Shown here piece after piece: positions 28,013 to 28,879 of a DNA stretch of 64,000 bases; within the stretch, counting starts at the first letter, position 1; every line of letters begins with the position of its first letter. Position numbers and translations under genes: made by a program. The notes under the pieces were generated by a model. It did not search any database, was not told where the DNA came from, and worked only from the letters and a program-made list of their open reading frames with translations. The stretch comes from Candidatus Magasanikiibacteriota bacterium (GTDB lineage: Bacteria > Patescibacteriota > Patescibacteriia > Magasanikbacterales > 2-02-FULL-50-9b): positions 2,144 to 66,143 of the forward strand of contig CAITMK010000014.1 in the NCBI GenBank assembly GCA_903893485.1, written 5' to 3'.

Positions 28013-28035
28013 ATAGTTTTTCTTGAGGCGGCTAG

Positions 28036-28064
28036 ATTATCTCATGATATTGACAAAAGTTCAA
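28036..28064 (-). promoter_or_regulatory. Candidate internal promoter for atpD-atpC
   Basis: Minus strand TTGAAC-17-GATAAT, divergent from the island D promoter. Confidence 0.4.
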
Positions 28065-28078
28065 TTTCGTGGTATGGT
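28050..28078 (+). promoter_or_regulatory. Sigma70-type promoter of island D gene
   Basis: TTGACA-N17-(TGg)TATGGT; SD GGAGGG 6 nt before ATG. Confidence 0.55.
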
Positions 28079-28154
28079 TGATGGGAGTCGAACGTCATTT
28101 TTCGCTTAAACACTTCGTTTTTAGCTGAAACTGGCCCGATCCCTGGAGGGTGTC

Positions 28155-28796
28155 ATGTTGCGTCGAATCGCTTCGTTTCTGGTTCTCTTTGTGCTCTGCT
28201 TCACAACGACGCCGGCATTTGCTTGGGGTCGCGGTGGTGGTGGAGGTGGTGGTCATGGCGGCGGCGGTTACCGCGGAGGTGGTGGCGGCTGGACCGGTGG
28301 CTATCGCGGCGGTGGCGGAGGTGGTTACTACAACGGCGGTTACCGCAGCGGTGGCAGCTGGGGTGGCTACAGCACCTGGGGCACTAGCCCTCGGTACGTA
28401 AACGCTTGGAACTACCCGAACCGGATCGTCTATCCCGCGCCCGTGCCGATGTGCACGTACCGCGACAGCTGGGGACGAATCTATCAGGCGATCTGCGTGG
28501 CACGTCCGGCCGTGGTGTATGCGCCGCCCGTGCAGCAATACGTGCAGCCCGCGCCGATCCCGCAGCAATACCTGGCGGATCAGCCGCCGGTATACGGACA
28601 GCCGCAGCAGCAAGTAGCTGCCCCGGCTCCGCCCGCAGCTGTTCAAGGCACGCACACCTTCGGCTGCTACCAGGCGCGCGACAACAACTTCTGGTACTGC
28701 GACGCAGACCAGCAGAAGTTCGCCAGCTGCACGCCGGCGGATACCACAGGCAACTTCGTTTGCCAGCAGCAAGTGATCGAATACGTCCGGCCATAA
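28155..28796 (+). CDS. GC-rich island D: secreted Gly/Tyr/Arg-rich, Pro/Gln-rich, Cys-rich protein (213 aa)
   Basis: Signal peptide MLRRIASFLVLFVLCFTTTPAFA; GGGGYRGGGGG repeats; PQQ/PAP linker; 6-Cys C-terminal domain; about 62% GC; opposite strand to the atp operon. Confidence 0.6.
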   Translation: MLRRIASFLVLFVLCFTTTPAFAWGRGGGGGGGHGGGGYRGGGGGWTGGYRGGGGGGYYNGGYRSGGSWGGYSTWGTSPRYVNAWNYPNRIVYPAPVPMCTYRDSWGRIYQAICVARPAVVYAPPVQQYVQPAPIPQQYLADQPPVYGQPQQQVAAPAPPAAVQGTHTFGCYQARDNNFWYCDADQQKFASCTPADTTGNFVCQQQVIEYVRP

Positions 28797-28822
28797 TGCC
28801 GCGCCGTTCGATCGCCAACCCA

Positions 28823-28864
28823 GGCTCCGACCACACAAGCGTGTGGCTCCGGAGTCCTTTTTTA
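28823..28864 (+). terminator. Intrinsic terminator of island D gene
   Basis: GC hairpin (CCACAC-AAGC-GTGTGG core) followed by TTTTTTATTTAT. Confidence 0.6.
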
Positions 28865-28879
28865 TTTATAAGAACTTTA

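Follow-up and report, generated by a model that had tools for sequence, protein, structure and literature searches.

In cyanobacteria and chloroplasts, the atp operon is split, with the genes for the β and ε subunits of ATP synthase located apart from the rest. The atp genes of an uncultured, ultra-small bacterium of the Patescibacteria are interrupted at the same place, i.e., between the γ and β subunit genes. The arrangement differs in that the two halves (atpBEFHAG and atpDC) share one strand and are separated by a mere 0.87 kb, which holds one convergent gene. With respect to the encoded protein, described counterparts include the glycine-rich proteins (GRPs) of plant cell walls and, in purple sulfur bacteria, the envelope proteins of sulfur globules, which combine a signal peptide with Gly-rich repeats containing Tyr or other aromatic residues and have extracellular structural roles. 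The likeness is confined to composition. No Pfam model matches the orphan protein described here, and the latter additionally carries a Pro/Gln-rich stalk and a Cys-containing module.

Phage morons (e.g., gene 15 of HK97) are extra genes with their own promoter and terminator and a deviant GC content (PMC3594210). Similarly, the gene in question (i) is placed between genes that are adjacent in relatives (of 146 Patescibacteria loci, 116 have an atpG–atpD gap <150 bp; median 52 bp), as the first-pass annotation of this DNA had presumed, (ii) possesses, at the level of sequence motifs, a promoter and a terminator of its own, and (iii) is distinguished by its composition (GC 0.64, GC3 0.70) from atpD and atpG (GC 0.45–0.47, GC3 0.37–0.44). 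In contrast to morons, it resides in a chromosomal housekeeping operon whose surroundings are free of phage genes, lacks a match in PHROG, and is kept at one site across a bacterial subclade rather than being scattered. Being located outside a phage or prophage, it is therefore moron-like in its working, but not a moron.

In the 64,000-nucleotide stretch of DNA analyzed (the window), the atpG–atpD spacer comprises 867 bp (positions 28013–28879) with ~64 % GC versus 46 % for the genome; determined in 200-nt intervals, GC ranges from 0.59 to 0.68 within the spacer as compared to ~0.45 in its flanks. The spacer is not an assembly artefact, since identical DNA (0 mismatches) is found in six contigs from separate samples; the orphan gene shows zero SNPs across the same six contigs, and its coding sequence was predicted by gene callers on 9 contigs. 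The coordinates of all features are compiled in Table 1.

Table 1 Features of the atpG–atpD slot and its flanking genes (positions refer to the window)
Feature	Position	Strand	Characteristics
atpD (F1 β subunit)	26639..28012	-	PF00006, PF02874, PF22919; downstream of slot in atp direction
Promoter-like motif facing atpD (putative)	28036..28064	-	TTGAAC-17-GATAAT, TG-extended
Promoter motif of orphan gene	28050..28078	+	TTGACA, 17-nt spacer, TGg-TATGGT (extended -10)
Shine-Dalgarno GGAGGG	28145..28150	+	4 nt upstream of ATG
Orphan CDS, 213 aa	28155..28796	+	stop codon 28794-28796
Predicted Sec-type signal peptide, residues 1-23	28155..28223	+	MLRR, hydrophobic core, AFA|WG; hydropathy, -3/-1 rule
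Gly/Tyr/Trp/Arg-rich low-complexity segment, residues 24-77	28224..28385	+	composition, 59 % Gly
Cys100-Cys114 loop (CTYRDSWGRIYQAIC)	28452..28496	+	Cys positions; modelled β-hairpin
Pro/Gln/Ala/Val-rich linker, residues 116-164	28500..28646	+	composition
C-terminal 4-Cys module, residues 165-213	28647..28793	+	Cys171, 182, 192, 203
Predicted intrinsic terminator	28822..28867	+	bulged GC-rich hairpin, then UUUUUUAUUU; ends 13 nt before atpG stop codon
atpG (F1 γ subunit)	28880..29827	-	PF00231, E = 1e-84; upstream of slot in atp direction

Promoter, Shine-Dalgarno sequence and terminator, all attributed to the orphan gene by the first-pass annotation, are present as motifs. A promoter scan retrieved 3 such sites versus 0.7 expected, and the window contains 7 instances of TTGACA-N13-16-TGNTANNNT versus 0.13 expected. 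The terminator hairpin together with its U-run yields a fold of -22.7 kcal/mol (z = -2.4); the bulges in its stem kept it from being picked up by a simple terminator scan. Viewed in the atp direction, the same element represents an A-run followed by a hairpin without U-tail, and atp transcripts should therefore run into the orphan unit. The motif facing atpD on the minus strand is likewise present as originally reported, its function being putative. Its -10 element ends 24 nt upstream of the atpD start codon; motifs of this type were detected in three of the 10 subclade members scanned (window, L169, L172) at non-equivalent positions, and the search for an atpD-facing promoter conserved across these 10 was negative. 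The split of the atp operon into two transcription units, which the first-pass annotation considered probable on this basis, is one possible arrangement. The atpD gene itself is devoid of a Shine-Dalgarno sequence and has an A-rich leader (AAGAAAAACTAT-ATG).

The plus-strand gene is real and encodes, as initially proposed, a low-complexity, Cys-containing protein with a signal peptide that belongs to no known family. The predicted signal peptide consists of MLRR, a 15-residue hydrophobic core (IASFLVLFVLCFTTT) and P-A-F-A|W, thereby combining a positively charged n-region and a hydrophobic core of the usual 10–15 residues with small residues at -3/-1. It is the only hydrophobic segment of the protein (hydropathy peak 2.88) and contains the only confident helix (residues 2–17, pLDDT 80–84) of a single-sequence AlphaFold2 model. 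Cys15 is part of a degenerate lipobox (FVLC) within the signal peptide, which deviates from the strict form ([LVI][ASTVI][GAS]C) by a disallowed Leu at -1. Since no anchor to wall or membrane (LPXTG, usable lipobox, transmembrane segment) is present, the protein could simply be released.

The 54 residues following the signal peptide include 32 Gly, 6 Tyr, 4 Trp and 4 Arg and are encoded by imperfect GGY-rich repeats, among which (GGT)7 represents the sole tandem array. A phase-variable contingency locus was considered and rejected on account of this single array and the identity of the gene in six contigs. The linker (49 residues) contains 12 Pro, 11 Gln and 10 Ala. Cysteines are located at positions 15, 100, 114, 171, 182, 192 and 203. 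The "6-Cys C-terminal domain" of the first-pass annotation thus holds with respect to six Cys in the mature protein, but these are distributed over the Cys100–Cys114 loop and a separate 4-Cys module, with the seventh Cys residing in the signal peptide. Model strands at 99–103 and 109–116 frame the loop, and four strands with one Cys each make up the C-terminal module, both at low confidence; with a mean pLDDT of 43.7, a C-terminal "knob" and disulfides are therefore conjecture.

A word-indexed search of 5.8 billion proteins retrieved only the orphan protein itself and two low-complexity look-alikes (P0002, P0003), and an exhaustive HMMER search with residues 76–213 against 1.84 billion representatives yielded only itself and repeat-inflated propeller matches. 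Pfam, NCBIfam and PHROG provided no match to the 213-aa protein. The propeller matches (E = 1e-6 to 8e-4, all multi-blade) trace to residues 176–201 (DNNFWYCDADQQKFASCTPADTTGNF), which align with the blade consensus DGNLWFTESSGNKIGRITPSGTITEF of the Vgb-lyase type (PF24684); these E-values are inflated, as a single stretch of the query aligns with numerous repeats in every target. The orphan protein differs in comprising one blade-length unit, in which Cys occupy the core positions otherwise taken by hydrophobic residues in each strand. A β-propeller with several tandem blades was hence rejected as its identity, given a single segment scoring 10.4 bits and no Pfam match even at E ≤ 10. The YgdI/YgdR (DUF903) type of small bacterial lipoprotein was rejected as well, since NF033216 and PF06004 give no match to the orphan protein. 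YgdI/YgdR itself has no known function. A likeness to this family is visible in the corresponding proteins of four relatives (L167, L169, L174, L175), which start from the lipobox Cys with x-x-x-Y-x-x-RD-x-x-G-x-I, L167 matching NF033216 below threshold (E = 0.005, 16.6 bits versus a cut-off of 42); the window protein differs in having neither a lipobox nor an NCBIfam match.

A subclade sample of 12 members including the window (atpG identity 59–84 %) was compared, and in all 12 a GC-rich gene that encodes a small, predicted secreted protein is located antisense between atpG and atpD. The promoter is conserved in sequence and position in 10 of them (window, L087, L167, L169, L171, L172, L174–L177; alignment cTTGACAaTT...TTTATGCTATAGT), while L173 and L178 carry a diverged version. 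The -35 element is found ~25–30 nt from the atpD start codon (~84 nt in L172), and a hairpin with U-run adjoins the atpG stop codon in all 10 loci checked. Ribosome-binding sites of the orthologues in the relatives, 5–8 nt before the start, read GGAGG in most cases and GGAG or GGGGG in others. Each orthologue is an intact ORF of 99–209 aa with a signal peptide, which includes a lipobox-like sequence (...[ATSQ][AGSE][GA]C) in 9 of 11, several being off the strict consensus at -3 or -2; the L173 and L178 proteins have a cleavage site of the signal peptidase I type in place of the lipobox. Most slot proteins of the relatives are predicted lipoproteins, small and rich in Gly, Tyr, Pro and Gln.

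GC3 of these cargo genes ranges from 0.62 to 0.87 in every member, as opposed to 0.33–0.58 for their own atp genes. Defining a slot gene by antisense position, TTGACA-17-TGnTAtaGT near the atpD start, GGAGG, signal peptide, a terminator near the atpG stop and raised GC3, the window gene displays all six features. The atpG–atpD gap amounts to 30 nt in the next outgroup, L179 (atpG 51 % identical), from which the slot is missing, as it is from most other Patescibacteria. On balance, the slot is probably orthologous and old, dating back to the origin of a single Magasanikbacteria-like subclade.

The proteins encoded in the slot have diverged profoundly. Pairwise BLAST links only some pairs of cargo proteins (2e-11 to 3e-4), and even the trio most closely related by atpG (82–84 % identical) lacks significant cargo similarity. 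For the window protein, BLAST against the other cargo proteins gave E ≥ 0.57, hhalign against an alignment of six of them returned no match, and HMMs of the relatives' modules gave p ~0.02 for module N and nothing for M and C. In Smith-Waterman comparisons, a faint residual similarity was noted, as the score of the window protein was reached by shuffled sequences in 3 (L177), 6 (L174) and 10 (L173) of 500 cases each. YAPPVQQY of the window linker aligns with YVAPVQNY of L174, and the Cys100 loop (CTYRDSWGRIY) contains a faint echo of the N-terminal lipoprotein motif of the relatives (p ~0.02, noticed post hoc). Homology between the window protein and those of the relatives is thus putative, and an unrelated gene could have refilled the slot while the promoter stayed in place. 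Simple vertical descent does not account for a GC3 that stays high on the time scale of the clade.

Taken together, these sequence comparisons favor a conserved, self-contained slot for a fast-diverging exported protein, likely of the envelope or cell surface (probability about 0.6). The first-pass annotation had instead regarded the gene as an insertion peculiar to this genome, and a recently and horizontally acquired, GC-rich foreign cassette splitting the atp operon would agree with a GC3 of 0.70 versus 0.31–0.46 in core genes, with a ribosome-binding site that core genes lack, with the absence of any homologue (an unsampled donor being possible) and with a protein that cannot be aligned with those of the relatives. 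The view of a genome-specific insertion is contradicted by the recurrence of slot, orientation and gene type in all 12 members, with a homologous promoter in 10 and a terminator in all 10 checked. The associated notion that no conserved host feature exists at this position largely falls with the synteny in relatives, even though no conservation can be detected in the sequence of the protein. Since raised GC3 is common to all cargo genes, it represents no mark of recent transfer into this genome. Insertion scars in the form of flanking direct or inverted repeats were not detected, the only repeats being internal Gly-codon repeats and chance matches of ~10 nt. No tRNA or integrase was found at the locus, and neither PHROGs nor plasmid tblastn matched the 213-aa protein. 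Recent insertion is accordingly considered unlikely. Literature searches on horizontal transfer in Patescibacteria and on morons, which were directed at these topics rather than at the locus, returned general papers and nothing on the latter. Hardly credible is a different reading of the region, according to which another overlapping ORF is the real gene or the DNA is non-coding. Long ORFs do exist in four frames, and the automatic caller chose the atp-sense frame in L167 and L168; these frames, however, specify Arg/Ala/Thr-rich strings without start-site signals, GC3 is highest in the plus-strand frame of 28155–28796, and Rfam yielded nothing above threshold for the spacer or the whole window. 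The antisense frame of L167 carries a lipobox as well as GGAGG and is significantly similar to the cargo of L169 (2e-11) and L174 (5e-10), so the sense-strand call is wrong there. The overlapping ORFs of the window (28095–28838 and 28384–28959 on the minus strand, 28406–28969 on the plus strand) represent by-products of a GC-rich, stop-poor sequence.

Rather improbable is also a unit acting mainly via transcription, in which the protein is of minor importance and a strong convergent promoter next to atpD curbs the passage of transcription from atpG, either by collision or by antisense pairing. Expression of the β and ε subunits would thereby be uncoupled from that of the upstream atp genes. 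Such a role would be compatible with the conservation of promoter and terminator but not of the coding sequence, with the proximity of the near-consensus promoter to the atpD start codon, and with entry of atp transcripts into the unit as expected from the missing U-tail. Against it, an open frame with a signal peptide and a strong ribosome-binding site has been preserved in every member, pointing to selection for a product that is translated and exported, and a purely regulatory antisense RNA needs no ORF of 300–640 nt. A role in transcription and a role of the protein are not mutually exclusive. As regards the latter, the mature net charge of +5, a segment of 59 % Gly, six Cys and the missing membrane anchor are reminiscent of a secreted, Gly-rich, cationic and disulfide-containing peptide of the antimicrobial or bacteriocin-like type. 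This function appears very improbable considering that genes for immunity, maturation or export are not present nearby (the neighbors are atp genes), that 190 aa is large for a Gly-rich bacteriocin, that no family matches, and that most proteins of the orthologous slot are lipoproteins and hence tethered.

In case of the favored exported surface protein, the spacer would operate as a self-contained unit of promoter, ribosome-binding site, ORF and terminator that converges on the atp operon. Promoter and terminator are kept, whereas the coding sequence would change by point changes, module loss and probably recombination at such a rate that orthologues are scarcely or no longer recognizable, with the version in the window having presumably lost a usable lipobox. 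Signal peptidase I may then cut at AFA|WG, releasing a 190-aa mature protein (net charge +5) that could consist of a flexible, "sticky" Gly/Tyr/Trp/Arg segment, a disulfide loop, an extended Pro/Gln stalk and a four-strand knob with two disulfides. We suppose that this protein stays at the cell envelope as a surface structural or adhesive protein, for which rapid evolution would be expected in an episymbiotic organism. Patescibacteria probably live in attachment to other cells, and hardly any of their surface proteins have been characterized. The fast-evolving, secreted or lipid-anchored slot protein is a candidate for a function in host contact or in the envelope, and the fixed address between atpG and atpD together with the conserved promoter would provide a marker locus for surface-protein turnover in uncultured lineages. 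With a convergent gene lying within an essential operon, it is also of interest by which means synthesis of the β and ε subunits keeps step with that of the other ATP synthase subunits.

The orphan gene could possibly be one member of a distinct class of GC-rich orphans of this lineage with a special evolutionary regime, an assignment that we regard as doubtful. The class has GC3 values of 0.53–0.70 and canonical ribosome-binding sites, as opposed to core genes with a GC3 of ~0.40 and no ribosome-binding site; if true, this would imply two modes of translation initiation within one cell. In this reading, the copy in the atp operon would demonstrate that an aberrant unit can persist at one site clade-long while its protein sequence turns over; possible routes are exchange of cassettes or GC-biased gene conversion, with the highly conserved atpG and atpD as "homology arms", or, alternatively, a standing pool of such cassettes. 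The contrast between orphans and core genes is in itself a testable observation on the ways in which reduced genomes take in accessory genes and express them. A donor search via the 172-aa product of a neighboring orphan (25573–26091) retrieved no homologue either. At least four genes of the class, at 21046–21630, 25573–26091, 28155–28796 and 36706–37299, are preceded at short distance by a strong promoter motif of the sigma-70 type.

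The window derives from a Patescibacteria (CPR) genome. Between the start of atpD and the stop of atpG lie 867 bp whose GC content rises to 0.59–0.68, compared with ~0.45 in the flanks. Since the gap between these genes has a median of 52 bp over the 146 Patescibacteria loci possessing both, and is shorter than 150 bp in 116 of them, this spacer represents an addition to the phylum norm. Identical spacer DNA (0 mismatches) is present on six readable contigs from separate samples, so the region is no assembly artefact. Contig L001 (1–2845) matches the window identically as far as atpD residue 346 (window 26984) and then continues with gatA/gatB sequence absent from the window; the resulting 601-aa atpD-amidase fusion call is due to a chimeric assembly or to rearrangement in a strain.

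In genome and metagenome collections, the closest AtpG proteins (47–64 % identity) belong to Magasanikbacteria- or Uhrbacteria-like MAGs, and the protein database yields a tight group sharing 59–65 % identity with AtpG of the window. All 11 readable loci of this group (L087, L167, L169, L171–L178) harbour an atpG–atpD spacer gene of 99–209 aa that runs against the atp genes; its GC3 is raised (0.62–0.87), and its product begins with a signal peptide. The signal is of the lipoprotein type, ending in ...[ATSQ][AGSE][GA]C, in nine of these relatives and of the signal peptidase I type in L173 and L178. GGAGG precedes most of the genes, and a hairpin with U-run follows them beside the atpG stop at all ten loci checked. 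A promoter of the form cTTGACAaTT...TTTATGCTATAGT can be aligned in 10 of the 12 clade members (window included) and is homologous among them, L173 and L178 carrying a diverged version; its −35 element lies ~25–30 nt from the atpD start codon (~84 nt in L172). In the nearest readable outgroup, L179 (AtpG 51 % identical), the gap measures 30 nt. Presence of this "slot" in 12/12 clade members, together with the short gap in the outgroup, therefore indicates an ancestral feature of the subclade. Thus, the orphan gene of the window resides in an old, conserved slot, and the insertion peculiar to this genome that the first-pass annotation had proposed is no longer tenable, relatives with the same arrangement being the very finding it had named as refuting.

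Four long ORFs overlap in the spacer because GC-rich DNA contains few stop codons. The 213-aa plus-strand frame has the highest GC3 of them, alone combines a start-site context with a signal peptide, and was chosen by gene callers on nine contigs; judged by the comparison with relatives, which settles the matter, it is the true gene. For L167 (4513–5211, +) and L168 (2613–3311, +), the database instead lists an atp-sense slot gene (232 aa, GC1 0.84, Arg/Ala-rich). This call is almost certainly mistaken, since translation of the antisense frame gives a lipoprotein with homology to the slot proteins ("cargo") of L169 and L174.

The promoter, ribosome-binding site and terminator attributed to the orphan gene from the outset are all found as sequence motifs, so that the ORF with its Sec signal forms a convergent, self-contained transcription unit. 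The initial description of the protein likewise stands, except for the proposed six-cysteine C-terminal domain: the six cysteines of the mature protein are arranged as 2 + 4. A single-sequence AlphaFold2 model, unreliable at a mean pLDDT of 43.7, places a hairpin at 99–116 and four strands at 168–205, each with one cysteine.

Features of the atp locus, the orphan gene and its product, and ORFs with raised GC3 in the window
Feature	Position or extent	Strand	Remarks
atpC	26221–26652	−	F-type ATP synthase gene
atpD	26639–28012	−	F-type ATP synthase gene
atpG	28880–29827	−	F-type ATP synthase gene
atpA	29829–31379	−	F-type ATP synthase gene; beyond it delta, b, c, a and atpI-like genes
Promoter	28050–28078	+	TTGACA-17-TATGGT with TG extension
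Ribosome-binding site	4 nt 5' of ATG	+	GGAGGG
Orphan gene	28155–28796	+	atp-embedded ORF; GC3 0.70
Signal peptide		+	MLRR, 15-residue hydrophobic core, AFA/WG (cleavage at slash); sole hydrophobic segment of the protein
Gly-rich segment	54 residues	+	32 Gly, 6 Tyr, 4 Trp, 4 Arg
Cys loop	Cys100–Cys114	+	cysteine positions
Pro/Gln/Ala/Val stretch	49 residues	+	composition
C-terminal module	Cys171, 182, 192, 203	+	cysteine positions
Terminator	ends 13 nt short of atpG stop codon	+	bulged GC-rich hairpin, then UUUUUUAUUU
ORF with raised GC3	13719–14741	−	GC3 0.61
ORF with raised GC3	21046–21630 (also given 21046–21697)	−	GC3 0.67
ORF with raised GC3	25573–26091 (also given 25573–26148)	−	GC3 0.65; 172 aa
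ORF with raised GC3	36706–37299 (also given 36706–37363)	−	GC3 0.68
ORF with raised GC3	41950–42516	−	GC3 0.53

A search of 5.8 billion clustered proteins with the orphan protein retrieved only the query itself; Pfam, NCBIfam and PHROG models gave no match, and tblastn against plasmids yielded nothing. Exhaustive HMMER comparison of residues 76–213 with 1.84 billion representatives produced seven weak matches (E = 1e-6 to 8e-4), all of them multi-blade Vgb-lyase-type beta-propellers aligning to a single blade-length stretch, DNNFWYCDADQQKFASCTPADTTGNF; these E-values are inflated, as one query segment pairs with many repeats per target. An HMM built from 37 blades assigns this stretch, itself chosen out of a whole-library search, 10.4 bits, a score equalled by about 1 in 2000 composition-matched shuffles. 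The blade likeness may serve as a lead only. The gene is thus a genuine orphan, its product a low-complexity protein predicted to be exported.

Slot proteins evolve very fast. Pairwise BLAST connects the cargo of L167 with that of L169 (2e-11) and L174 (5e-10), L087 with L175 (5e-8), L171 with L175 (3e-4), L172 with L176 (2e-4) and L173 with L178 (9e-5). No significant cargo similarity was detected among L087, L167 and L171, the closest trio by AtpG (82–84 % identity). Different parts of the L175 protein recur in the cargo of L174, L087 and L171, a mosaic that fits module loss or recombination. The window, which together with L173 branches deepest in the atpG tree, encodes a protein without significant similarity to other cargo by BLAST or hhalign. 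Faint residual similarity is suggested by composition-preserving shuffles, which reached the observed score in 3/500 (L177), 6/500 (L174) and 10/500 (L173) cases, and the short motifs YxNxWxYPxRI and Yx(A)PVQxY recur in relatives' cargo. The slot proteins of L173 (4098–4598, −) and L178 (1547–1981, −) are of their own type. Both have a cleavable signal peptide, contain the motif CE(E/M)CP as well as a hydrophobic segment in the interior, and possess a tail rich in Tyr, Gly, Pro and Gln; this tail is closest in composition to the Gly/Tyr region of the window protein. Since promoter, terminator, position and product type are conserved, descent of all slot genes from one ancestral gene is the most economical reading; possibly, the coding part was swapped behind a retained promoter.

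Cargo GC3 is high in every clade member despite AtpG divergence down to 59 % identity, a distance that should have allowed drift to host composition. Possible causes are repeated cassette exchange via the conserved atpG/atpD flanks, a recombination hot spot with GC-biased gene conversion, or selection tied to ribosome-binding-site-dependent translation.

The orphan protein is read as a predicted envelope or surface protein. Transcription would start near 28085 from the strong predicted promoter, with translation relying on the ribosome-binding site. Following Sec export and cleavage after Ala23, the mature protein would comprise 190 aa with a net charge of +5. Its start, where most relatives would carry a lipid anchor, would lead into a flexible Gly/Tyr/Trp/Arg segment that could bind wall polymers or self-associate, then a Pro/Gln stalk and a small disulfide-stapled beta module. 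Rapid evolution of the slot proteins is probably diversifying, and, the lineage being episymbiotic, the protein may plausibly have a role in cell–cell contact.

Read in the atp direction, the terminator of the orphan gene presents an A-run followed by the hairpin and has no U-tail; therefore, RNA polymerase coming from atpG should run into the unit and meet a strong promoter head-on. The alternatives would be partial read-through into atpD or a separate start for this gene. An atpD-facing, TG-extended TTGAAC-17-GATAAT motif is present in the window, its −10 element ending 24 nt upstream of the atpD ATG. Of the ten clade members scanned, only three have comparable motifs, and these lie at non-equivalent positions.

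Gaps of at least 250 bp between atpG and atpD are found at 27 of the 146 wider loci. Their contents are unlike those of the window's clade: most are AT-rich and run in the atp direction. Five (L036, L064, L096, L105, L127) encode a four-helix-bundle protein of the 23S-rRNA-intervening-sequence type, and others (L011, L056, L149, L009, L020, L072, L076, L144) a GIY-YIG nuclease, toxin-antitoxin pairs or small membrane proteins. In Patescibacteria, the gamma–beta junction thus serves repeatedly as a landing site for unrelated small genes; the GC-rich antisense unit for a secreted protein is specific to the window's subclade. The atp operon of outgroup L179 is broken elsewhere: a 99-aa ORF (1615–1914) separates atpA from atpG, and a peptidyl-prolyl isomerase gene (4282–4869) separates atpD from atpC.

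The atp-embedded gene is one of a class of GC-rich orphans in the window with their own ribosome-binding sites. None of the six ORFs with raised GC3 has a Pfam match or a PHROG match passing E 0.01, NCBIfam models matched none of the five scanned (the orphan gene and four others), and no homologue of the 172-aa ORF turned up among the 5.8 billion proteins. GGAG or GAGG stands at a start codon of all six, compared with the first start of 0/44 core ORFs (≥150 aa; Fisher's exact p = 2.8e-6), which are AT-richer and have A/T-rich leaders; at 294 candidate starts of core ORFs, internal GGAG/GAGG is present only at chance level. The window contains no rRNA gene. Consensus promoters of the TTGACA/TTGACT type lie just 5' of at least four class members (21697->21669, 26148->26120, 28050–28078, 37363->37335), and the extended-promoter pattern occurs seven times in the window versus 0.13 expected. 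The anatomy of these units matches that of phage "morons", extra genes of deviant GC that sit between otherwise adjacent genes and bring their own promoter and terminator (PMC3594210), but the units are chromosomal and show no phage link. The orphan gene may accordingly be described as a moron-like autonomous accessory gene, its interest residing mainly in the conserved slot with hypervariable cargo and in the contrast of composition and ribosome-binding sites between orphans and core genes. Two identical terminator-like hairpins on the minus strand (20312–20325 and 20989–21002; GGGCGCTGGCGCTT followed by a T-run), 677 bp apart, flank a small-ORF region adjoining the GC-rich orphan at 21046–21630.
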